From Escherichia phage ALITA: a DNA stretch of 64,000 nt. Each line of letters begins with the position of its first letter. The stretch's first letter is position 1. The notes beneath the pieces were generated by a model. That model did not search any database, was not told where the DNA came from, and saw only the letters and a program-made list of their open reading frames with translations. Shown piece after piece: positions 2 through 13,598 of the stretch. Made by a program: the position numbers and the translations under genes. Location: sequence record PP359570; one strand, written 5' to 3'.

Positions 2-1726
2 GCCACCCAGTTGAAAGATACAGATGGAGCAGAGTTAATAGGACATAGAAACGCTACGGTTGGCACTACTCTGGATTCAATTGCAGTCCGCTCAGATCAA
101 TTTTCTACTATTCAGGAATGGGCATCATACCCAGCAAAGCACAAAACTTTAGCAGGCGGAACATATACTCTGGACTCTACTCTCAGTGTTGAATGTGAAT
201 CACTGACCACTGAGGGTGTAGTTACTATAAATGCTTCTGGTTCATTCATCGCTATGTATTTTGGTACAAATCAGCGAGATTTACTAACCACTCTTAGCTC
301 TGATATTTCAAAAGGGATAACCAGTCTTACTGTCGATAATGTTCAGGAAGGAGATACTTTATGCTTTTATAATCCTTCTGATTTTTCATGGTCTGGATAC
401 CGGAATTATTATCGTAGTGGAGAGTTTGTTAAGGTTGTTAGATATTCAAATGGGATTGCACACTTCAATGGAGGGACGAAAGCCGCATACCCATCTGGGA
501 CTCAAGTTTACAAGCTAAAAACAAAAAAAGTTTCTGTAAGCGGGGCTTTTGTATTTAATTTTCCTTCATACGACAAAACTGCTATGGCTATGCAATTCGA
601 GCAGATAGCTGATGGTAACTTTGACAATCTCGTTGTCACATCTCACACCGCCCCTTATGCCGTTCAGTTTAAACGTTGTTTCAATCTTACCGGTAAGGGG
701 ATGCGTCTCACACAGGAATCTCCTTCTGTAAGTTTTGGCTTAGAATATGGTTGCTACATCTGCAATAGCCAGAATATTGATTTTGAAGGTATATTCTGTG
801 CAGAGCGCCATGCAGTCACTGTTACAGGTAATGATGAAATCTGCGGTATTGTTAACAGATTTGTCAGTGTTAACGCCAGCGGTGGCGGTGCAATCATGAC
901 CACAGGGCAAGGCAAGGTTGCAGCAGCAGACTGGCACGGAAACACTGAAAAGTGCAGGTATGGTGGATATATTCAAGGGCTTGCTTGTGGTGGGTCTAAA
1001 AATAGCGCACGTGGTGCTCATATCGACCACGTACCTAACACCCCGGCATGGCCTAACATACTCGCTACGGAACTTAAGTCAATTGAGTTTGATTTAAGCA
1101 ATATCCATGTTACAGGGATAGGTGATCCATCTTCAGTAAACAGAGGTTGTATTGATTTTGGAGGTAACTCCACTGCATTTGGAGCTAATACTGTAGAACC
1201 TGGCACTTTGAATCTTTCTGGGGCTGTTATTGATTCTCCCGCAAACGTGTTGATTGAGATAAGGAACAGGGGTTCATTGGCTGCTCACACCATAAATCTT
1301 AATGGAGTTACCGCTAATGCAGAGAGCGGTAAGTACACGGTCAGGATTGCGCCAATTGGAGAAGGTATTTCCCCTTCAGATGTTTACATGGCAGGATTTA
1401 AGATGCCTGACGGCAGTATCTCACAGATAAATAACCTGTCATCAGTGAACGTACACGGGGTGTCCAAAAAAGGTAGATCTTCTATAACCATACCAAGTGG
1501 GGCCAGTTCTGCGGAGTTAACCATCCCTTTCGATTCCACTGTACTTGGTGCTCCGAAATCAGTTCAGTTTAATCGGTCAGGGCTTGTTCCAGCGGCACAA
1601 GCAAGGATTGTATTCTCTGAACGAACTTCGTCACCAACAGGGTTTCGGGTTATCGCGGCAACAGCTAACGGTAATACGCTCTCAGCAGACCTTACTATAC
1701 CGTTCTCATGGCGTGCAGATTGGTAA
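2..1726 (+). CDS. Tail fibre/tailspike-like structural protein; frame is open to window edge, so probably 5'-truncated (ORF track start at 11 is TTG without SD)
   Basis: Long ORF at head of structural block; G/S/T-rich beta-rich composition typical of fibre proteins; no SD upstream of position 11. Confidence 0.55.
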   Translation, partial: ATQLKDTDGAELIGHRNATVGTTLDSIAVRSDQFSTIQEWASYPAKHKTLAGGTYTLDSTLSVECESLTTEGVVTINASGSFIAMYFGTNQRDLLTTLSSDISKGITSLTVDNVQEGDTLCFYNPSDFSWSGYRNYYRSGEFVKVVRYSNGIAHFNGGTKAAYPSGTQVYKLKTKKVSVSGAFVFNFPSYDKTAMAMQFEQIADGNFDNLVVTSHTAPYAVQFKRCFNLTGKGMRLTQESPSVSFGLEYGCYICNSQNIDFEGIFCAERHAVTVTGNDEICGIVNRFVSVNASGGGAIMTTGQGKVAAADWHGNTEKCRYGGYIQGLACGGSKNSARGAHIDHVPNTPAWPNILATELKSIEFDLSNIHVTGIGDPSSVNRGCIDFGGNSTAFGANTVEPGTLNLSGAVIDSPANVLIEIRNRGSLAAHTINLNGVTANAESGKYTVRIAPIGEGISPSDVYMAGFKMPDGSISQINNLSSVNVHGVSKKGRSSITIPSGASSAELTIPFDSTVLGAPKSVQFNRSGLVPAAQARIVFSERTSSPTGFRVIAATANGNTLSADLTIPFSWRADW

Positions 1727-1827: not shown

Positions 1828-2019
1828 ATGTCTTTCAACATACTAAGTATTATCTATGATAAGGAGACGCAAAGGGCGTATTCCCTACCTGCTGATATTG
1901 CCCCAGGTATTACTGCCATTAGTCTTAGTGCTGCTGTACTTGTGCATTCAGCGGGTTCTGTAGACCTTGGGGAATTAGCTGTATATCGTGATTTAAAAAG
2001 TAATGAGAACGCACCATGA
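1828..2019 (+). CDS. Hypothetical small protein
   Basis: 63-aa ORF, no clear SD. Confidence 0.3.
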   Translation: MSFNILSIIYDKETQRAYSLPADIAPGITAISLSAAVLVHSAGSVDLGELAVYRDLKSNENAP

Positions 2020-4393: not shown

Positions 4394-5377
4394 ATGGCAA
4401 AGCCACAATACTACCCTGACTGGGCGACACAAACAGTAACCCTCCCAGGAACGGGAAACACAAACAAGATTAGACCAAAAGAAACCATCCGTAATGTTGG
4501 TATGGACTTTGGTCAGATTATGACTTGTGAAGAAATGAACTGGATCTTAAACAATATTGGGTCTTGGATTCGCTATATGCAAGATGAATTCTTCCCAACA
4601 TTGCCTACTACATATCTTCCTATAGTCGGTACTAAAATTACAATGGCAGGTGATGCTACAGGTGAAGTTACATGGAATGGTAATGCTGCTGTAACATTAT
4701 CTATTCAAGTCGTAGATAACAGCCATAATCACTTATCAGCTAACATTACAGACGCAACATCAAACCAAGTTGTAGGGAATGTCCTTGTTAAGCGTGATAA
4801 TGGTGGTGCTATCTATGCAGGCGATATTTATACCTGTGGTACAGGTGCTACAGATCCTGCAACATTATTTTTTAGAAACTACAACGGACAAACAGTAGGT
4901 AATATGTCCTCTGAACCAGGTGCAGGTGGTCAACTCTATATTTATAGAATGAACCCATCAACTGGAGGAACATCTTGTGCAGTCCGTTTATATGATGCAG
5001 GTTATGTTTTAATAGACAACCCTCGTTCTAATTCTGGTCAAGATACTGGTAATGGTAATGCTCTTGTAAGATTAGACTATCTTAACTCCAGACTAAACTC
5101 ATTGCAAAGCACACTGCAAAATAATATTAACAACGTTAATAGTAACTTGCAAGGCCAAATTAATAGCATTAACAATAGAGTTTCTTCTGTTGTGTCTGCT
5201 ATCCGTCTTGGAACACGTATCCAAGCTGGTGTGTCTGAGTCTCGTTTCTATGCTGGTCACGTGATCACAGGTTGGGGTTTTGGTGACAAGAAAGAACTTC
5301 GTGGTGCTTGGTATTGGTCAGCCCCGCTACAATATTATATTAATGGTAGCTGGATAACAGTAACCAACGTTTCGTAA
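4394..5377 (+). CDS. Tail fibre protein with C-terminal coiled-coil/N-rich repeat
   Basis: 327-aa ORF, SD AAGGAG; N/Q/S-rich heptad-like segment LNSRLNSLQSTLQNNINNVNSNLQGQINSINN. Confidence 0.55.
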   Translation: MAKPQYYPDWATQTVTLPGTGNTNKIRPKETIRNVGMDFGQIMTCEEMNWILNNIGSWIRYMQDEFFPTLPTTYLPIVGTKITMAGDATGEVTWNGNAAVTLSIQVVDNSHNHLSANITDATSNQVVGNVLVKRDNGGAIYAGDIYTCGTGATDPATLFFRNYNGQTVGNMSSEPGAGGQLYIYRMNPSTGGTSCAVRLYDAGYVLIDNPRSNSGQDTGNGNALVRLDYLNSRLNSLQSTLQNNINNVNSNLQGQINSINNRVSSVVSAIRLGTRIQAGVSESRFYAGHVITGWGFGDKKELRGAWYWSAPLQYYINGSWITVTNVS

Positions 5378-5386
5378 GGAGAGTCT

Positions 5387-5938
5387 ATGAAAAAAGACAT
5401 TATTTTTACAGGTTTTGAATTGTATGAACCAGAATTAACAGAAGAAAATATTCTTTATCTTTCTGTTGGTGGTGGTTTTTTGCAAGACAAAGATGGTAAC
5501 GACTGGTATCAGCTTCAAAAAACTTTGATGGTAGAATATCCCGACGCTTATTTTATTACCTTAGATGATAATAATATTGTACGTGGTGCTACTAAAGATG
5601 TTACTACCTATTTCCCTGCCGGACAATCTATTTTAGTTACATATAATGTACCAGATAAAATAGAAGATGAAAGTAATATTGGCTCTTGGCAATATGTTGA
5701 AGGTAAGTTTGTTCCTCACAATAATCTTGCTATTGAAGATGCTACTCTTAGGTTAGAAAAGGAGCTAACTTGGGCTACGAATCAAGTATCTGCGATTCAA
5801 GATTTAGAGGAATTACAAGGTTTATCTGAAGAACAAAAAGATTGGTTAGGAAAAGTTAAACTCTATCGTGCAACATTAATTCAAATTAACGTTGAAGATG
5901 CACCTAATATAACTTGGCCTACAAGACCTAAGAAATAG
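5387..5938 (+). CDS. Hypothetical structural/fibre-assembly protein
   Basis: 183-aa ORF with SD AAGGAG, in fibre cluster. Confidence 0.45.
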   Translation: MKKDIIFTGFELYEPELTEENILYLSVGGGFLQDKDGNDWYQLQKTLMVEYPDAYFITLDDNNIVRGATKDVTTYFPAGQSILVTYNVPDKIEDESNIGSWQYVEGKFVPHNNLAIEDATLRLEKELTWATNQVSAIQDLEELQGLSEEQKDWLGKVKLYRATLIQINVEDAPNITWPTRPKK

Positions 5939-5947
5939 GGGCAATGT

Positions 5948-6289
5948 ATGGAGCTAACAGAAGTATGGGATATCGCTAAAGAGGCGATTATCCCTCTTAT
6001 TGGCGTAATCTGGGTGGTCTTCAAACAGAAGATAGATGATATGGCAAGTGATTTGGATAAAATGGAAGACAAATACCGCGAACTAGAAAAGAAGTTGGTG
6101 TTTGTTGAATCCACTTATGCTACCAAAGCAGAACTTGCTCAAATGCTTAACCAGATCAACTCTACATTAATGGCAAATAATACTGCCTTAGAACAGAAGA
6201 TTGAAAAAATAATGGATTTAAAAAATGCTCCTGTTCAATTAATGCTAGAGGAGATTACAAAGCGCACACAAAGTAAGGACAAAAATTAA
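5948..6289 (+). CDS. Small membrane-anchored coiled-coil protein
   Basis: 113 aa; N-terminal hydrophobic helix then charged coiled-coil; stop overlaps next ATG. Confidence 0.45.
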   Translation: MELTEVWDIAKEAIIPLIGVIWVVFKQKIDDMASDLDKMEDKYRELEKKLVFVESTYATKAELAQMLNQINSTLMANNTALEQKIEKIMDLKNAPVQLMLEEITKRTQSKDKN

Positions 6290-8703
6290 TGGCGAATTTT
6301 CCAACATATCCTGCTACGACACTAGAACAAGGTGTTGATCTGGTTATATTCTCGTCTAACCAGATGCATGATGTTATTAATGGGGATGCTACAGCAACTG
6401 TAGAAACCGAAACAGGTTTAATACCTACACTGCGTAAAGCACTTGTTGATAACTTCTTCTTTAAGAGTCCTGTTGCTTGGTCAGCAGGATCAACTGAAAC
6501 TGTATTTAACCAGTTACGTTATTTTGAAAACGGTATCTTGAGTGGGTACTATTATGCCCCATCTGCCACTACTGCGAACCCTGTACCTATGCAGGGCACA
6601 CCTGTAGGGGACAGTAACTGGACTCTGTACGCTCTTAAAACTGAACAGTTAGCTTCAGATGTGTATCCTTGGTATTTTAAAGGTGCTACAGGATATGAAA
6701 CAGAAATCAGTCCTCCTTATATCTTTGATAATGCTATTGTCACCATTAACGGTGTAATTCAGATTCAAGGTGAAGCATTTACTATCAAAGATAGTAAAAT
6801 TATTCTGGCAGAACCATTAGGTTTAGATCCGTCTACTGGTCTACCTAACAAATTGTTTGCTTTTATTGGTAAAACAACAGCCTCTACTTCTTACGTAGAG
6901 AAAAACCTTTTGTCATCTACCACTGGTGCAGCAATGGTTGGTCTTCCATCTGGAGGCAACCTGTTACAAGCTCAATACTTTGTAACGCCTGAGCAGTTTG
7001 GTGCAATTGGTGATGGAGTTACCGATGATACTCAAGCAATTTTAAAAACTATTACTTTCGCTAACACGAATAACATTCAAGTACGTGCAGATAAGAATTA
7101 TAGATTCACAAGCTCAATTGCTATGTCTGGTATTCGTTGGTATGGTGGTACATTCACTGGTAACGGTGGAACAATGATTTCTACTGTGTCCTGTTGGATG
7201 GAAAACGTTCGCTTTGAAAAATGTTATGTTAAGATGTTAGGTGGTGATTGCCGATTCTATCGTAATATCTTCTCCAACGCAACATCTACAGCAGCATTCT
7301 TAATGCAAGCAATGACAAGTGAAGGTACGTTGGACTTCAGTTACAACGAAATGTATGGTTGTAAATATGCGATCCTGCAACAAGGTACTGGAGAAGTAAT
7401 GACCTACGGGCGTTACTCTAACAACTATATTCACGATATCAAAGGTGATGCTATTGAACTTAACGTAGTTCAAAAACACTACACTGAAGGTTTGATTATC
7501 GAGAATAACCACATTGCTAACGTAGATGCTTCTGGACAAGGTGCAAACTGGGGTATTGGTATTGGTGTAGCAGGTAGTGGCCCATATGGTGTTGATGTTC
7601 CTGATTCACAATATGTACGTAATTTCAGTATCGTTGGGAATAGGGTTTACAATTGCCGTCAATGTCTACACGTTGAAATGGGTAAAAACTTCACAATACG
7701 TGATAATGAAGTTTATCCTAACACAGCAGTTTCAACAGGTACAGGTTTAACTACTTGTGGTGTTGCATTATACGGATGCCAAGATTTTGAAGTTGATGGT
7801 TTAACTGGTTATCTGCTCAATGATCCGTCTGTTTCAACACGTATGGTCTTTATTGACTGGGGTGTTAACAGTGGAAGATATGCGGGGCCACCAATTAACT
7901 TTACAATTAAGAATTTGGATATTCCAGAATCTTCAATTGAGATTGCAACCTCTGGATCAGATGCTTGGGAAAACTCTACAATTGTTAGTAATATCAATTG
8001 TAATGTTTTTAAATGGCGTGGGCTACCATCTAGCTCTACTTTTAATAATATTCGTTGCCGTAGTATTGACTTTATTGGTCAACACGGAAGCGGAGAAGGA
8101 AGTGGTGGCGGTTTCTATACTCGCAGCCAATTCACGTATATGAAGTGGGTAGGATGTACAGCACTTAGCGGAGATGAAACAACAGTTTCTTTTGCTAAAA
8201 TCTACACTGATCGTTGCGATCAGGTTGGAAATAACTTTGGTGTTCCAACTGCTGTTGATGGTACAGGTCATCGTGGGCCAGTTTTAACTACTATTTCTGA
8301 ACAATATTTTACAGCTTATGATGAATTCCCAGGTGGGCGTGAATTCCCTACTGGAACAGTTATTCATTGTGCAAGCGGTAAAAAACATGTTGTTACAGTA
8401 GGTGGTGCTTTCTTTAGTGCCAACGAGAAAATAAAAGCAACTGTTACAGGTCAAACCTATCTACAGTCTAATGCTTTAAACTGGGCTAGTAATGGCTACG
8501 CTAAAGCAGCAGGTACTAAGATTGTTATTCCAGGTGCAGGTGCAAATGGCGGCGATCTTGTGACAACTATAGCACGTGCTACATATGTGACAAATAGTTT
8601 GTACACAATAGATATTGCAGATCCAATTGTAACACCTACAGCAGAGAATACACAAATTAAAGCTCTGAATCCTGTTACTTTTGTTACTGTCAACAATGCT
8701 TAA
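6289..8703 (+). CDS. Tailspike with pectate-lyase-like right-handed beta-helix (putative polysaccharide depolymerase)
   Basis: 804 aa; motif FGAIGDGVTDDTQAIL characteristic of pectate lyase superfamily tailspikes; followed by hairpin terminator. Confidence 0.8.
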   Translation: MANFPTYPATTLEQGVDLVIFSSNQMHDVINGDATATVETETGLIPTLRKALVDNFFFKSPVAWSAGSTETVFNQLRYFENGILSGYYYAPSATTANPVPMQGTPVGDSNWTLYALKTEQLASDVYPWYFKGATGYETEISPPYIFDNAIVTINGVIQIQGEAFTIKDSKIILAEPLGLDPSTGLPNKLFAFIGKTTASTSYVEKNLLSSTTGAAMVGLPSGGNLLQAQYFVTPEQFGAIGDGVTDDTQAILKTITFANTNNIQVRADKNYRFTSSIAMSGIRWYGGTFTGNGGTMISTVSCWMENVRFEKCYVKMLGGDCRFYRNIFSNATSTAAFLMQAMTSEGTLDFSYNEMYGCKYAILQQGTGEVMTYGRYSNNYIHDIKGDAIELNVVQKHYTEGLIIENNHIANVDASGQGANWGIGIGVAGSGPYGVDVPDSQYVRNFSIVGNRVYNCRQCLHVEMGKNFTIRDNEVYPNTAVSTGTGLTTCGVALYGCQDFEVDGLTGYLLNDPSVSTRMVFIDWGVNSGRYAGPPINFTIKNLDIPESSIEIATSGSDAWENSTIVSNINCNVFKWRGLPSSSTFNNIRCRSIDFIGQHGSGEGSGGGFYTRSQFTYMKWVGCTALSGDETTVSFAKIYTDRCDQVGNNFGVPTAVDGTGHRGPVLTTISEQYFTAYDEFPGGREFPTGTVIHCASGKKHVVTVGGAFFSANEKIKATVTGQTYLQSNALNWASNGYAKAAGTKIVIPGAGANGGDLVTTIARATYVTNSLYTIDIADPIVTPTAENTQIKALNPVTFVTVNNA

Positions 8704-8744
8704 TTAAAAAGGGGCGAAAGCCCCTTTATAAAAGGAGTAGTAAA

Positions 8745-10706
8745 GTGATTTTAACACGTCCAAATAGTGCCATTGCAGACATGGTAGAGTCTCGCTATAG
8801 AAAGCGTAGAAGTTTTGCAAGTGGTTTTACCTTAAGAGATGCTCGTGAAGCATTGCTCTTTGAAACTGACGGTAACTACTATCAGTGGAAAGGTTCTCTA
8901 CCTAAAGTTGTACCTGCTAACTCTACTCCTACATCTACTGGAGGGATTTCAGATACAGCTTGGAAAAATGTGGGTAATGCAGATGACATTGCTCAAATAG
9001 AATCAGAATTAGATGCTATTGAAGCTGAAATTGAAGATCTTAGAGAATCCATTCCAGAGGCTGGTAAATCAGCTTACCAGATTGCCGTAGACAATGGTTT
9101 CCAAGGTACTGAGACAGAGTGGTTGGCTTCTTTAAAAGGTGATCCAGGTGCTCCATTAAAGCTGCTAGGGACGCTATCTAATACCAACCAATTACCTACA
9201 ACTGGAAACAATGCAGGAGATGCATGGATTGTAGGCGAGAATATGTATGCTTGGGATGGTACGGCTTGGAGAAAAGTAAACTCACAGGGGCCAGAAGGTA
9301 AATCCGCTTATCAAGTTTGGCTTGCAGCAGGAAACCAAGGTACAGAACTAGATTATCTTGCTTCAATTAAAGGTGATAAAGGGGAGCCTGGCCCAGAGGG
9401 GCCACAAGGTGTGCCAGGTAACAATGCTAATGGTTTTGATTACCAAGGTGCAGCTAATTCCGTTTCAGATCTTCCTTCTGCATCTCCTGGAAACACATCT
9501 CAAGCATGGAGTATTGGTACATATCTATACGTGTCAAACGGTGTAGAATGGATCAATATGGGTGCTATAGTGGGGCCAAAAGGAGATAAAGGCGACAAAG
9601 GAGATAAGGGTAACACTGGTGATTCTGCTTATCAAGTCTGGTTAAATGCTGGTAACGTTGGTACTATTGACGAATATATTGCCTCTCTGAAAGGAGAAAA
9701 AGGTGATAAGGGAGACAAGGGTGATCAAGGTGAGCAGGGTATACAAGGCTTGACGGGGCCAACTGGTGCAGGGTTGACCATTATTGATATTCTGACTGAC
9801 ACTTCTGAACTACCAGGAACTGGAGAAGATGGTGATGGTTATCTGATCAATAATGAACTTTGGGTTTGGTTGCAAGGAGCCACACAGTGGACAAATGTTG
9901 GTCGTTTAGCTGGTACTCCAATCACTGCAAAAGGACACGTTGCGTCTGCAAGTGCACTTCCTCCTACATCCAATTACGGTGATGCTTATCTGACGGAAGA
10001 TACAGGTCATCTTTACATTTACACCTATGATGAACAAACTCAAACTGCTGAATATGTAGATATGGGTAGTTTGAAAGGTGATAAGGGTGAGAAAGGTGAC
10101 GCTGGTACTAACGGTACGGATGGTGCAACTTGGATTGTTAAAACAACAGATCCAATCTCTAGTGATGGTAAACAAGGTGATTATGCCTTTAATATCTCCA
10201 CTGGCGAGGTGTTCTTAAAAACATCTGCAACTGTCTGGACTTCTCAAGGTACACTACCTAGCATCACAGATGCACCTAGTGACGGTAAGATCTATGCTCG
10301 TAAAGATGGAGCATGGGAAGAACTCACTAGTTCTGTAGATGGTCAAGATATAGTTCCAACAAAAGTAACAACTAATTTTATAGAGGTTACAGCATACACC
10401 AACAACTCTGTTACAGGGGACTGGACACCTCCAGGAACACATAACATGAATGTGTTGAATCTTACTGGTAACTCTACTATAAAAGCATGGCCTGGTGTCG
10501 AAGATAGCACAAAACCTAAACCATTCTCTGCAATAGTTTATCTTATCCAAGATGCCACTGGGGGTCATACTGTTACTTTAGATCCATCTTACAAAGTAAT
10601 TGGTTCTAGTGATATTAATACAGATCCTAACGGAGTAACAATACTACAACTAACATATTGTGGTGTTGGTGATTACGTGGATGCTATTGTTGCTAAACGC
10701 ACATAA
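8745..10706 (+). CDS. Collagen-like tail fibre protein
   Basis: 653 aa, GTG start after SD AAAAGGAG; multiple G-X-Y collagen repeats (GDKGEPGPEGPQGVPG, GDKGDKGDKGNTG, GEKGDKGDKGDQGEQGIQG). Confidence 0.8.
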   Translation: MILTRPNSAIADMVESRYRKRRSFASGFTLRDAREALLFETDGNYYQWKGSLPKVVPANSTPTSTGGISDTAWKNVGNADDIAQIESELDAIEAEIEDLRESIPEAGKSAYQIAVDNGFQGTETEWLASLKGDPGAPLKLLGTLSNTNQLPTTGNNAGDAWIVGENMYAWDGTAWRKVNSQGPEGKSAYQVWLAAGNQGTELDYLASIKGDKGEPGPEGPQGVPGNNANGFDYQGAANSVSDLPSASPGNTSQAWSIGTYLYVSNGVEWINMGAIVGPKGDKGDKGDKGNTGDSAYQVWLNAGNVGTIDEYIASLKGEKGDKGDKGDQGEQGIQGLTGPTGAGLTIIDILTDTSELPGTGEDGDGYLINNELWVWLQGATQWTNVGRLAGTPITAKGHVASASALPPTSNYGDAYLTEDTGHLYIYTYDEQTQTAEYVDMGSLKGDKGEKGDAGTNGTDGATWIVKTTDPISSDGKQGDYAFNISTGEVFLKTSATVWTSQGTLPSITDAPSDGKIYARKDGAWEELTSSVDGQDIVPTKVTTNFIEVTAYTNNSVTGDWTPPGTHNMNVLNLTGNSTIKAWPGVEDSTKPKPFSAIVYLIQDATGGHTVTLDPSYKVIGSSDINTDPNGVTILQLTYCGVGDYVDAIVAKRT

Positions 10707-10745
10707 TCAAAGCCCCTTCGGGGGCTTATTGTTTAAGGAGATTAA

Positions 10746-12905
10746 ATGTATCCTATTCCTTTATTTATGTCAACAACATCAGCTTCAGTAGTAACAGCTA
10801 CATCTATAACTACTTCCTCTATTGGTATTGCAATAGTTGGTGGTAAAAAACAACTGACATACACAGTTACACCCGAAGATGGTGCGTTATTTGATATAGC
10901 TTTTTCATCTTCAGATGATACCAAAATGGTTATAGATAATAGTGGTATGATGGAGTTTGTTGCCGAAGGTGGTTTTGATGCAATAATGACAGCTAAAAAT
11001 AATTTAGGTGCTGTCTTAACTGATCAATCTGGTGGTTATGCTTCAGAATTAAGTGTGTACACTGAAAGTCTATCGGCTATGGATGTAGGCACTACTCAAC
11101 AGTTGGTTGCTACAATCAGTCCAGAAGGTGCTAAAGACCTTCCAGATATGGTAATTACATACACCACAACAGATCCAGAAGTAGCTACTGTAAGCCCTAC
11201 AGGGTTAATAACTGCTCTTAAAGATGGCGGTTGCCGTATAGGTTGTACTGCAACGTATCAAGGAACAGTTGTGGCCTCTGATAGTTCTTATTTAGGTGTT
11301 AATGCTATTCCTGTTATTTCTAATGTAACAGCCGTGGCAAACAGCTATGGAGACGTTCGTGTTGCTTGGGATGTAGCTGATCCGCTAGACGGTGATACTT
11401 ATACTGTAGAAGTATTAGATTTAAGTAATAATAGTGTTCAGTGGACTACAACAACCACGAATACTTACGCCTACTTTGATATCTCTGACTCTATTCCTCT
11501 TTATGGGTTTGCTCCAACATACCTTAAAATTAGCGTTAAGAGCACCAAAGCAGCAGCCGTTATCTTTAATAACTCAATAGCTACAGATGATTCGTTCATT
11601 AAAGAAGTTATTGTCTTTGCTGGACAAGATAACGTAAATGCACACTTTACAGAACTATCTGGTGCAAATAAAGCAGCAATGGGTAGCACAACAGCCCGTA
11701 ATGCATATGCTACGCAACGTGGTTTAGCAAATGCTGAAGTTCTTCCGTTAAATACAGCTTCTGGATCATCAGCAGCAGATAAATATGCTGACGATAAAGC
11801 TGGAACAGGTACACCAGATAACTACTGGTATGATTTGGATAACACAGCAGATGGGCCATGCTTAACTAACTTTATCACTAAAGTCACACCTTATGCAAGT
11901 AAGGTTAAAGCAATTATTTGGGGACAAGGTGAAAATGATGCTGTATCAGCATCTTCGACTGTTGCAGGTAGGTACAGTAACACTACACGTTACCATGATG
12001 CTACGATAGCTATCTTTGATAAGATGCGTACAATAGTTCCTGCTTCTCAAGCAAAAATTGTTTGGCAGATCCTAGGACGTTCTTATTTATATGGTGTAGA
12101 AGTTAATGGTGTGGATTGGCAGAAGTACAGAAATGTACAAAGAACCATCTCTACAGCACGTGATGATGTTATCATTGGTTCTTGGGTAGATGGTGCTGAA
12201 CGTTACAGTGGTTATGTTTATGAAGAAGGTATTGATGGTCGTATCCATTATGTTTCTTCTGTATACCAAACAGCAGCTACAAAACTTGCTAAATCAGCAG
12301 CAGACGGTACAGACTTAACATCAACGTCACCTGTTTGGGTTGATATGGCTGTTCCAACTGGAGCAACAGCTACTTCCCAACCTAATCAAGATACAATTTT
12401 AGCATGGGATGCTCAAGGCTATAGTAAACACTACTTCCGTAATATTAACGTCTTAACCGCATCTGTATTAACTGAACAAACGCTTAATACGAACAGTTAT
12501 ACGTTTACCTATGCAGATCAAGTAGAACAATATGGTTTTGCAGCAGGAACTACTATATTTGATGTTGCATATTATGACGAAGCAAATGATGTGTTATCTC
12601 CTTTAGTACGTTTTAATGTTAACGTTACAGCAGGAACCGTAGAAGATAAACCTGTCGTGATGGACTATGATTTGACGCAAGAAACTCTTCCATCAGATGT
12701 TAAGGTTAATGGTGGGAACTCTTTTGCTCGTGCTTCTGGAGATATACTTGTAGCCACTAACACCTTGGTTGCTCCGTTGGAGTATGTTGGTAATACCCCT
12801 GTAGGTAGACGTGTAACAGCTAACACAGCTTCACAAATTTTTGTCAACAACGCCTTAACAAGTGCAAGCCCGTGGGTAAAGACCAACTTAACTGTTGCAG
12901 CTTAA
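10746..12905 (+). CDS. Tail fibre/receptor-binding protein with Ig-like (Big_2-type) domains and SGNH/sialate-O-acetylesterase-like domain
   Basis: 719 aa; SD AAGGAG; Ig-like repeats near N-terminus; esterase-like blocks FAGQDNVNAHF and WGQGENDA. Confidence 0.7.
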   Translation: MYPIPLFMSTTSASVVTATSITTSSIGIAIVGGKKQLTYTVTPEDGALFDIAFSSSDDTKMVIDNSGMMEFVAEGGFDAIMTAKNNLGAVLTDQSGGYASELSVYTESLSAMDVGTTQQLVATISPEGAKDLPDMVITYTTTDPEVATVSPTGLITALKDGGCRIGCTATYQGTVVASDSSYLGVNAIPVISNVTAVANSYGDVRVAWDVADPLDGDTYTVEVLDLSNNSVQWTTTTTNTYAYFDISDSIPLYGFAPTYLKISVKSTKAAAVIFNNSIATDDSFIKEVIVFAGQDNVNAHFTELSGANKAAMGSTTARNAYATQRGLANAEVLPLNTASGSSAADKYADDKAGTGTPDNYWYDLDNTADGPCLTNFITKVTPYASKVKAIIWGQGENDAVSASSTVAGRYSNTTRYHDATIAIFDKMRTIVPASQAKIVWQILGRSYLYGVEVNGVDWQKYRNVQRTISTARDDVIIGSWVDGAERYSGYVYEEGIDGRIHYVSSVYQTAATKLAKSAADGTDLTSTSPVWVDMAVPTGATATSQPNQDTILAWDAQGYSKHYFRNINVLTASVLTEQTLNTNSYTFTYADQVEQYGFAAGTTIFDVAYYDEANDVLSPLVRFNVNVTAGTVEDKPVVMDYDLTQETLPSDVKVNGGNSFARASGDILVATNTLVAPLEYVGNTPVGRRVTANTASQIFVNNALTSASPWVKTNLTVAA

Positions 12906-13565
12906 TCTGATAAATCTCCGGCTGGAACTACTGCCAATGTATTCAAATTAACTCCGACTACAACCTCTGGTAGTCATATCTTAACTGCAACATATACTAA
13001 CGCGTACAACATATCTGCCGGACGTAACTGGTCTGCCTCTGTTTTCTTGAAAGCGAACGGGATCACTAAGGCCAAACTAAGATTAAAAGCAGGAACTGAA
13101 GTTAATGAGGGTACTTTTGATTTAGCAGCAGGTACATTCACAGGAAGTGAAGCTAATATTATATCTATGGGCAACGGTTGGTATCGTGCTATTCTGCATA
13201 AAACAGGGATAGCCAAACAGTCCTCCATAAGTTTTGAAATAATTGCCTTGGATGCAACTGGTGCGGAGATTTTCGCTGGAGATGGTACTAGTAACCTTGC
13301 AGTTTGGTTGCCACAGCTTGAAGGTGCTTCTACAGGAGAAACATCAAAAGCTGGATCGCCTTATGTCTGCACATATCCTGGAAATTTAGGAGGAGTATCC
13401 TTCACTATACCAAGGAACGGACATACTGGTGTGGATGTTTACTATTCCAACGGAGACGTTGTTCGTGACGTATTCTCTGGTACGGCATCTACTTGGACAA
13501 TAAACTACTCCAGCTTGTACGATTGGGGATCAGTCTTTATTACAGGTTTGAAATATTACGACTAA
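12906..13565 (+). CDS. In-frame continuation of the preceding fibre gene after a single TAA (putative C-terminal distal domain; readthrough, pseudogene or error)
   Basis: Same reading frame as 10746-12905, no ATG or SD for 140 nt after the stop; ORF track start at 13047 is TTG. Confidence 0.4.
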   Translation, partial: SDKSPAGTTANVFKLTPTTTSGSHILTATYTNAYNISAGRNWSASVFLKANGITKAKLRLKAGTEVNEGTFDLAAGTFTGSEANIISMGNGWYRAILHKTGIAKQSSISFEIIALDATGAEIFAGDGTSNLAVWLPQLEGASTGETSKAGSPYVCTYPGNLGGVSFTIPRNGHTGVDVYYSNGDVVRDVFSGTASTWTINYSSLYDWGSVFITGLKYYD

Positions 13566-13598
13566 TAAAAAAGGAGCCATTAGGCTCCTTTTCTTTTA
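13566..13598. terminator. Bidirectional intrinsic terminator between convergent operons
   Basis: AAAAAAGGAGCC-ATTA-GGCTCCTTTTCTTTT hairpin flanked by A/T tracts. Confidence 0.7.

Follow-up and report, generated by a model that had tools for sequence, protein, structure and literature searches.

The adsorption apparatus of phage phi92 and its genus has been described as a 'Swiss army knife' (PMC11984140; PMC8594841; PMC12210895). According to the account of Schwarzer et al. (2012) given in PMC11984140 and PMC13450770, the phi92 apparatus (gp141-gp153) comprises several co-expressed tailspikes and fibres, and three types of fibre are seen on the phi92 baseplate by cryo-EM (PMC13450770). For one of the tailspikes, gp150, cleavage of colanic acid has been reported (Xu et al., 2025, cited in PMC13450770).

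Two other systems are relevant here. In the branched tailspike systems of the CBA120/G7C type several receptor-binding proteins are likewise encoded side by side. In the podovirus N4, gp65 (PDB 9LC0, 9YF4) is a receptor-binding, non-contractile sheath protein, a 1382-aa subunit of ten domains. On E. coli K-12, N4 and phi92-like phages alike require the NGR glycan (PMC8669472), and a GMSHY motif in gp65 has been proposed to bind NGR (preprint 10.64898/2026.04.02.716166).

Here we analyse a stretch of 64,000 nucleotides from Escherichia phage ALITA (record PP359570), referred to as the window. An earlier note on this DNA had read positions 6289-13565 as three consecutive receptor-binding proteins of a branched, multi-adhesin tail. 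The three-gene observation holds, but most of it had been known before: these are tailspike and fibre genes of the phi92 type. What goes beyond it is a stop codon inside the third gene, and a domain that this gene has in common with N4 gp65, where it is found twice.

The tail-fibre locus of phage ALITA

The closest DNA is that of phage inny (99.5% identity), and identities of 95-99% extend to approximately 50 Justusliebigvirus genomes. Synteny with the phi92 tail-fibre cluster gp144-gp159 is complete, with the same gene order and with orthologs of gp148, gp149, gp150 and gp151 at 80%, 99%, 99.6% and 97.9% identity, respectively. We regard the region as the 3' end of the late tail-fibre and tailspike cluster of a phi92-like myophage of the genus Justusliebigvirus, and hold the overall explanation given here to be highly probable. 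One slot of the cluster is variable, being occupied by the endosialidase gp143 in phi92 but by a different beta-helix tailspike in ALITA (2-1726); this partial ORF, previously taken for a fibre, matches the Pfam Gp49 pectin-lyase-like and TSP Ig-like families.

Three successive plus-strand genes, here called genes 1, 2 and 3, follow a gp149-like gene whose stop codon TAA overlaps the gene 1 start codon ATG (TAATG) (Table 1). Each has its own Shine-Dalgarno sequence, as the earlier note had said: AAGGA at 6275-6279 for gene 1, and AAGGAG at 8732-8737 and 10735-10740 for genes 2 and 3. A terminator hairpin had also been claimed for each, and a GC-rich hairpin does follow every gene, but a proper T-tract is present only at the third, where T-tracts flank both sides and a terminator is annotated in phage Paula. 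The hairpin after gene 1 was absent from the output of the terminator-like scan, and the one after gene 2 has a poor run of T behind it (ATTGTTTAAG); the two may act as weak terminators or stabilise the RNA. A sigma-70 promoter scan was uninformative, because it returned 23 sites where chance alone would give 22.

Table 1. Features of the tail-fibre locus in the ALITA window.
Feature	Coordinates	Strand	Basis
gp149-like 113-aa protein, hydrophobic segment and coiled coil	5948..6289	+	112/113 identical to phi92 gp149; PHROG 15210 'lipoprotein'
Gene 1, colanidase tailspike, phi92 gp150 ortholog, 804 aa	6289..8703	+	801/804 identical to gp150
Gene 1 N-terminal attachment module, residues 12-126	6322..6666	+	PDB 9CUY chain g, E 9.4e-18
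Gene 1 beta-helix core, WcaM homolog (colanic acid gene cluster), residues 358-553	7360..7947	+	NCBIfam TIGR04004, E 6.5e-29, local match
Gene 1 C-terminal tailspike Ig-like domain, residues 704-792	8398..8664	+	Pfam PF20745, 54 bits vs cutoff 27.9
Hairpin 3' of gene 1, AAAGGGGC-GAAA-GCCCCTTT, weak T-tract	8708..8727	+	dG -14.5 kcal/mol, z -3.1
Gene 2, collagen-like fibre, phi92 gp151 ortholog, 653 aa, GTG start	8745..10706	+	639/653 identical; PHROG 15437 'tail fiber protein', full length
Gene 2 tailspike-type N-terminal domain, residues 11-77	8775..8975	+	Pfam PF18668 Tail_spike_N, 75.5 bits vs cutoff 25
Gene 2 central region with G-X-Y runs	9372..10130	+	Regex and repeat analysis; Pfam Collagen; NCBIfam SclA-like E 1e-13
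Gene 2 foldon-like motif, residues 507-533, ...DAPSDGKIYARKDGAWEELTS...	10263..10343	+	Pfam Fibritin_C 19.1 bits, under cutoff 21
Hairpin 3' of gene 2, AAGCCCC-TTCG-GGGGCTT	10710..10727	+	dG -13.1 kcal/mol, z -1.8; found by terminator-like scan
Gene 3 as read in window, 719-aa truncated product	10746..12905	+	ORF list and translation; exact sequence only in WWP17711.1 (phage ALITA)
Gene 3 Ig-like (Big_2) region, residues ~30-187	10833..11306	+	Pfam Big_2, E 4e-12
Gene 3 SGNH/SASA-fold domain, residues 283-520	11592..12305	+	D295 (nucleophile position), N397 (block III), H501 (block V)
Gene 3 beta-sandwich domain, residues 528-628	12327..12629	+	Natural 628-aa allele (phage muut) stops here
Gene 3 remainder 3' of the stop, residues 721-939 of full-length form	12906..13565	+	Includes NF048003 domain
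Bidirectional terminator hairpin, gene 3 / convergent gp154-like gene	13569..13592	.	dG -15.4 (+), -18.2 (-) kcal/mol

A colanidase tailspike and a collagen-like fibre

The pectate-lyase-like beta-helix tailspike proposed for gene 1 was borne out by matches to WcaM and to the crystal structure of phi92 gp150 (PDB 6E0V/6E0W), the crystallised part of which is fully covered (1430 bits to 6E0V_A over residues 180-804). Only three substitutions separate the two proteins (I282V, S528N and A711D, window residue first), and gene 1 also matches PHROG 6117 'colanic acid degradation' (E 5e-270). The N-terminal module aligns with a tail fibre protein (residues 15-130) in the model of the phage phiTE baseplate; in the phiTE paper the fibre N-termini are modelled as wedge-bound (PDB 9CUY). 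We propose that the gene 1 product is a trimeric colanidase tailspike, in which an N-terminal module of ~126 aa would act as the anchor, probably at the baseplate periphery. By analogy with the activity reported for gp150, its WcaM-like beta-helix would cut colanic acid and the virion would thus be able to cross the slime layer.

For gene 2 the reading as a collagen-repeat fibre likewise held, with four G-X-Y runs (residues 210-227, 277-294, 317-343 and 445-462; 6, 6, 9 and 6 triplets) and a Pfam Collagen score of 32.5 bits, above the cutoff of 27.2. Three modules of ~30 aa with the pattern 'SAYQ...LKG' are present, the second and third within the central region and the first (residues 109-138) just upstream. 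The N-terminus matches the N-terminal domains of CBA120 TSP1, TSP3 and TSP4 and of other solved tailspikes, although gene 2 differs from such systems in having no enzymatic beta-helix, and no enzymatic family was matched in Pfam, PHROGs or NCBIfam. The foldon-like motif has 12/27 identities to the T4 foldon. The gene 2 product, a putative adhesin, would be a non-enzymatic trimeric fibre in which globular modules alternate with short collagen-like triple helices; besides its tailspike-type N-terminal domain it would have a foldon-like motif for trimerisation and, at the C-terminus, a knob of ~120 aa.

An esterase fold without the catalytic serine

In close relatives gene 3 is a single gene of 939 aa (10746-13565 in the window). 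It combines Ig-like domains with an SGNH/SASA-fold domain, a beta-sandwich and, at the C-terminus, a variable domain that belongs to the GTA head-spike fibre type. The Big_2 module is common to alternative tail proteins with RCC1 domains, and clusters P0039-P0061 match gene 3 across only 24-26% of the protein, that is, over this Ig-like module, at 54-74% identity. The SGNH alpha/beta/alpha fold was confirmed. The Ig-like and SGNH parts of the fibre described in the earlier note are present, but the nucleophile serine is absent and the reading frame is interrupted by a TAA codon.

Specifically, the nucleophile position is occupied by Asp295 (11628-11630), so that the motif reads GQDN, whereas SASA/CE6-type SGNH esterases (E. 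coli NanS 3PT5, 1ZMB, 2APJ; PF03629) have the serine of GQSN; Asn397 of block III (GQGENDA) and His501 of block V (GRIHY) are kept. GQDN is invariant among 31 close clusters, phage muut and phi92. Homologs of the domain were collected by an exhaustive representative search, a word-indexed profile search having given three fragments only. Serine stands at the nucleophile position in 92/112 related domain copies and aspartate in five, which include P0002, the cluster representative of ALITA's genus, and the divergent P0032-34 group. In this sister group the asparagine is lost as well (GEQD) and histidine has become glutamine in two of the three. The domain, which is embedded in a phage structural protein, scores 14.9-16.8 bits against Pfam SASA (PF03629), under the gathering cutoff of 24.8, while distant relatives found with the domain profile pass as members of this esterase family. 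The earlier note had named a lack of catalytic residues in the enzymatic domains as evidence against its reading, and in this one domain the nucleophile is indeed missing (Asp for Ser in 31/31 close clusters).

The GenBank product name 'tail carbohydrate esterase' and the earlier note both imply that gene 3 has esterase activity. If it did, gene 3 would be an active carbohydrate esterase or deacetylase tailspike that deacetylates a surface glycan, like phage G7C gp63.1. The presence of the fold, the bona fide Pfam SASA esterases among its distant relatives and the retention of Asn397 and His501 together with an invariant Asp295, which suggests selection on the site, are in keeping with this, and the site that these three residues form could be catalytic in an unconventional way instead of inactive. 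However, aspartate stands at the defining nucleophile position, the site appears to decay in P0032-34 and the Pfam score is below threshold, and we consider an active enzyme improbable; we know of no SGNH hydrolase with an aspartate nucleophile. As aspartate replaces the nucleophile serine genus-wide, we infer that a glycan, which may carry acetyl groups, is bound by the esterase-fold domain but not hydrolysed. With the catalytic serine missing across the genus, the label 'tail carbohydrate esterase' probably overstates the function.

A variable distal domain and a premature stop codon

Downstream of the beta-sandwich gene 3 is variable. The phage muut ortholog is a natural short allele of 628 aa (terminus ...VNVT), and residues 629-939 of the long allele show only 60-67% identity in relatives that are 98-100% identical upstream of this point, as is typical for a specificity domain. 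The distal domain of the full-length form (residues 723-863; 12912-13334) matches NCBIfam NF048003 at 60.8 bits (cutoff 36), and the region downstream of the ALITA stop codon matches positions 653-870 of PHROG 11922, with zero Pfam matches at E up to 10. No homologs were retrieved with the 219 aa downstream of the stop as query, and the alignment used for structure prediction therefore held three sequences only; for the distal domain this gave a low-confidence model (pLDDT 49.7). We propose that gene 3 encodes a modular glycan-recognition protein with Ig-like spacers, the SGNH/SASA-fold domain and a beta-sandwich, to which the long allele would add a variable distal domain similar to a carbohydrate-binding module.

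In the window, 10746-13565 is not the one open frame it had been taken for. An in-frame ochre TAA at 12903-12905 (codon 720) replaces the TCA (Ser) of relatives, as compared with phage Paula, through a single C to A difference at position 12904, and leaves a 719-aa ORF and an orphan fragment. The first in-frame start of the orphaned part is TTG at 13047, with no Shine-Dalgarno sequence upstream. The 719-aa product retains all of the natural 628-aa short allele but is without the distal domain. Phage inny has an intact 939-aa CDS, and close clusters are all 936-939 aa. The phi92 copy is broken in another way, into gp152 and gp153, by a 226-nt deletion plus a 2-nt insertion, whereas ALITA has the long allele with a nonsense codon. 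The TAA is followed by T, and TAAT is a strong termination context in E. coli. Suppression by a tRNA or programmed readthrough was rejected, as there are no tRNA genes in the window and none of the 15 tRNAs of inny, the closest relative, reads UAA.

The TAA might instead have arisen through faulty sequencing or assembly of the deposited ALITA genome, with the normal 939-aa protein being made. Such an error would need only the one C to A difference, and the 719-aa form comes from one contig as against dozens of clusters at 936-939 aa. However, substitution errors are uncommon in finished phage assemblies, and the gene is dispensable or labile elsewhere, as seen in the gp152/gp153 split and the 628-aa short allele, so we think an error unlikely. 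We take the stop codon as it stands in the record.

Placement of the putative adhesins in the virion

The multi-adhesin tail suggested by the earlier note agrees with the published multivalent model of phi92 and with the complete synteny, although one of its members is truncated and lacks the SGNH nucleophile. A 'branched' tail, with gp150, gp151 and the gene 3 product mounted on it, is presumptive: in the 2026 cryo-EM study of phi92, neither gp150 nor gp151 could be fitted into the unassigned fibre II (PMC13450770).

Alternatively, gp150 alone may be a baseplate tailspike, with the products of genes 2 and 3 placed elsewhere on the virion as accessory adhesins, such as head or neck spikes or tail decoration, which would raise reversible sticking to glycans, with no branched fibre. 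The poor fit to fibre II and the resemblance of phi92 gp151 to the head spike gp52 of phage Pa223 (PMC13450770) are consistent with this, as are the match of the gene 3 distal domain to a 'phage head spike fiber' family (NF048003), the Big_2 Ig-like domains at its N-terminus, as in lambda gpV and decoration proteins, and the phi92 annotation of gp152 as 'lambda protein V like fold'. However, the genes lie within the baseplate and fibre cluster, directly 3' of the short-fibre gene and that of its chaperone, the gene 2 N-terminal domain is of the family that makes up the N-termini of tailspikes attached to the baseplate, e.g. in CBA120, and a conserved N-terminus with a swapped C-terminus, as in gene 3, is typical of receptor-binding proteins. 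We consider placement away from the baseplate unlikely, and prefer a multivalent tail of the phi92 type.

A domain in common with phage N4 gp65

With the gene 3 SASA-like domain as profile, N4 gp65 (9LC0_I) was found at E 1.4e-35, with two domains at residues 431-598 and 732-979; in its size, its ten domains and its role as a podovirus sheath subunit, gp65 is unlike gene 3. The SASA-like domain occurs together with the GMSHY motif in 13 gp65-like proteins. The motif itself is absent from gene 3 and from all six frames of the window, and in relatives it is located in a gp141/gp142-like protein.

As the SASA-like domain is common to gp65 and co-occurs with GMSHY, gene 3 could help recognise NGR. 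We therefore offer, as a speculative and rather doubtful idea, that the Asp-bearing SASA-fold domain is a pseudo-esterase glycan-binding module common to gene 3 and N4 gp65, and that, together with the gp142-like protein, gene 3 helps to recognise NGR or another acetylated exopolysaccharide, e.g. colanic acid. The conserved aspartate might then contact the amino or acetyl group of a sugar.

Implications

The cluster illustrates how the very broad host range of phi92-like phages comes about, a principle published since 2012. Because ALITA and phi92 both carry defective copies of gene 3, comparisons of host range between isolates should allow for the state of this gene. If the proposed role is true, the ALITA truncation and the broken phi92 copy would mark parts of gene 3 as dispensable on laboratory hosts. 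The domain common to gene 3 and N4 gp65 is a testable lead on glycan recognition by phi92-like myophages, and may help to assign fibre II of phi92.

Genomic setting and upstream genes

The stretch 6289-13565, which carries three consecutive tail genes (genes 1, 2 and 3), is 99.5% identical in DNA to Escherichia phage inny and 95-99% identical to about 50 other Justusliebigvirus genomes (Stephanstirmvirinae, phi92-like myophages). All three proteins have exact counterparts on record in Escherichia phage ALITA (genome of 147,398 bp). In the annotated records of Paula, PaulScherrer, inny and phi92 (here L001, L002, L003 and L004, respectively), the order of phi92 genes gp144-gp159 is that of the window. 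An intein is annotated in the DNA polymerase gene of PaulScherrer (L002 19118-22432), not in that of Paula or inny.

Upstream of the three genes lie further components of the tail, listed together with the translation signals in the table. A 2026 cryo-EM study of phi92 assigned gp147 as fibre III (PMC13450770). Where phi92 has the endosialidase gp143, the window has in the same slot a beta-helix tailspike, whose top database match is only 90.5% identical and is found in phages of E. coli O177. For most Justusliebigvirus genomes the match to the window starts only at about 1850, and the tailspike gene has the look of a specificity gene that is exchanged horizontally. The 63-amino acid reading frame that follows may be left over from the variable tailspike or may serve it as an adaptor piece; a "tailspike protein" of about 101 amino acids is annotated at this position in PaulScherrer and BME3. 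The gp149-like protein, immediately upstream of gene 1, shows weak matches to Rz-like spanins, and its stop codon shares bases with the gene 1 start codon (TAATG), which suggests that the two genes may be translationally coupled.

Features of the tail gene region (window positions)
Feature	Position	Strand	Remarks
Beta-helix tailspike ORF, 5'-truncated	2-1726	+	Pfam Gp49 pectin-lyase-like and TSP Ig-like domains
63-aa ORF	1828-2019	+	Stretch 98-99% conserved across the genus, match starting at about 1840-1850
gp147 short fibre	4394-5377		Counterpart of phi92 gp147
Tfa-type chaperone of the gp147 short fibre	5387-5938
gp149-like protein, 113 aa	5948-6289	+	Hydrophobic segment and coiled coil; PHROG "lipoprotein"
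Shine-Dalgarno, gene 1	6275-6279		AAGGA
Gene 1, 804 aa	6289-8703	+	801/804 residues identical to phi92 gp150
Shine-Dalgarno, gene 2	8732-8737		AAGGAG
Gene 2, 653 aa, GTG start	8745-10706	+	639/653 residues identical to phi92 gp151
Shine-Dalgarno, gene 3	10735-10740		AAGGAG
Gene 3	10746-13565	+

An earlier note, made from the sequence alone, gave each of the three genes its own Shine-Dalgarno sequence and terminator hairpin. All three genes do have a Shine-Dalgarno sequence and a hairpin behind them (dG of -14.5, -13.1 and -15.4 kcal/mol after genes 1, 2 and 3), but T-tracts accompany only the last hairpin (13569-13592), where they occur on both strands, between convergent genes. A scan for terminator-like sites returned 8, against 4.7 +/- 2.0 expected by chance; the weight of the hairpins lies in their position in intergenic gaps, not in their number.

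Genes 1 and 2

The description of gene 1 as a pectate-lyase-like beta-helix tailspike proved right. The protein is nearly identical to phi92 gp150, residues 180-804 align end to end with PDB 6E0V/6E0W, and WcaM, encoded in the colanic acid gene cluster, is a homologue of the beta-helix core (residues 358-553; E 6.5e-29). The protein is already characterised, as phi92 gp150, which reportedly hydrolyses colanic acid at the beta-1,4 bond between glucose and fucose (Xu et al. 2025, as cited in PMC13450770). The match of residues 12-126 to the N-terminus of a tail fibre protein in the baseplate model of phiTE (Vequintavirinae; PDB 9CUY, E 9.4e-18) suggests that the gene 1 product may be attached directly to the baseplate.

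Gene 2 was fairly called a collagen-repeat fibre; it contains four G-X-Y runs of 6, 6, 9 and 6 triplets, although these collagen-like segments are short. Its tailspike N-terminal domain (PF18668, 75.5 bits) is shared with CBA120 TSP1/3/4 and other solved spikes. A module of about 30 amino acids ("SAYQ...LKG") occurs three times, and a weakly foldon-like motif at residues 507-533 (Fibritin_C 19.1 bits, cutoff 21; 12/27 residues as in the T4 foldon) is followed by a C-terminal domain of about 120 amino acids. Pfam, PHROGs and NCBIfam gave no enzymatic family match for this protein, and the phi92 cryo-EM paper noted that gp151 resembles gp52, the Pa223 head spike (PMC13450770).

Gene 3 alleles and the stop codon

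The earlier note's observation stands, except for an in-frame stop in gene 3 (10746-13565) that it missed. Codon 720, TCA in the relatives, is TAA in the window (12903-12905), and the product therefore ends at 719 amino acids, a form recorded solely for ALITA. Paula, PaulScherrer and inny have a single coding sequence of 939 amino acids, and the 31 close protein clusters measure 936-939 amino acids, bar one 899-amino acid entry from a 3-kb contig. Neither the window nor phage inny has a suppressor tRNA for the TAA, and no Shine-Dalgarno sequence precedes TTG 13047, the first in-frame start past the stop.

Gene 3 has other alleles as well. A natural short allele of 628 amino acids (e.g., in phage muut) stops precisely at the point from which the long form extends, and everything in it is kept in the truncated ALITA protein. 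Compared with muut and the window, the phi92 copy has lost 226 nt and gained 2 nt, which splits the gene into gp152 and gp153 (L004 5911-7573), with gp153 lacking a ribosome-binding site by phi92's own annotation. The extension itself (residues 629-939) has only 60-67% identity in relatives that are 98-100% identical upstream of it, a pattern seen with exchangeable specificity domains. Past the stop, the full-length protein matches the family "phage head spike fiber domain" at residues 723-863 (NF048003; 60.8 bits, cutoff 36). Matches of the extension to carbohydrate-binding modules are only suggestive because the AF2 model is poor (pLDDT 49.7).

The esterase-fold domain of gene 3

For the Ig-like/SGNH-esterase fibre proposed earlier, the architecture holds: Big_2 Ig-like domains occupy residues ~30-187, the N-terminal quarter is common (54-74% identity) to tail proteins in related phages, which have RCC1-type domains instead, and the SGNH/SASA fold is confirmed. 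A profile of the esterase-fold domain, run against 1.84 billion representative proteins, found 230 relatives. Of ten that were scanned, seven cleared the Pfam SASA threshold by a wide margin and two only marginally, and one fell short of it. The relatives carry the motifs GQSN (block I), GGS (block II), WxQGExD (block III) and the block V His, and 92 of the 112 domain copies have Ser where the nucleophile sits.

Block I of Justusliebigvirus gene 3 is GQDN, which places D295 (codon 11628-11630) at the nucleophile position and makes conventional serine-esterase chemistry unlikely. GQDN is invariant in 31/31 close clusters, muut and phi92, and such a strictly conserved Asp could be a sign of unusual chemistry, N397 and H501 being kept. 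In a sister group (41-44% identity) the motif is GGDN, the block III Asn is also lost and the block V His is replaced by Gln in two of three members. We favour the reading that the domain is a glycan-binding pseudo-enzyme.

The domain also provides a link to phage N4, where the match is gp65, the receptor-binding protein. In gp65-like phage tail proteins with a SASA-like domain (our entries P0171-P0219), Ala, Met, Leu, Val or Asp often stands in place of the nucleophile Ser and the tandem copies are incomplete, and GQSN is kept in many shorter, more distant relatives. The varied replacements, with GQSN in the distant relatives, suggest that the esterase fold may have been converted repeatedly to a binding module in phages.

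Published comparisons connect N4 with these myophages by another route, through the GMSHY motif of a deacetylase-like domain in the gp142-like fibre (PMC8594841; preprint 10.64898/2026.04.02.716166), and GMSHY has been proposed as a mark of NGR-binding fibres (10.64898/2026.04.02.716166). GMSHY has no match in any of the six frames of the 64-kb window. It is found in the gp141/gp142 homologues of Paula (L001 2652), PaulScherrer (L002 341) and inny (L003 1652), and that of ALITA presumably lies upstream of the window. Thirteen gp65-like proteins carry both GMSHY and a SASA-like domain, a co-occurrence that points towards a common glycan target but does not prove it.

Significance

Against the phi92 background the finding is already known, and the branched multi-adhesin tail that the earlier note proposed restates the established phi92 model. 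The additions are modest, namely the stop codon in gene 3, the genus-wide replacement of Ser by Asp and the domain common to gp65, and they are worth noting in annotation.
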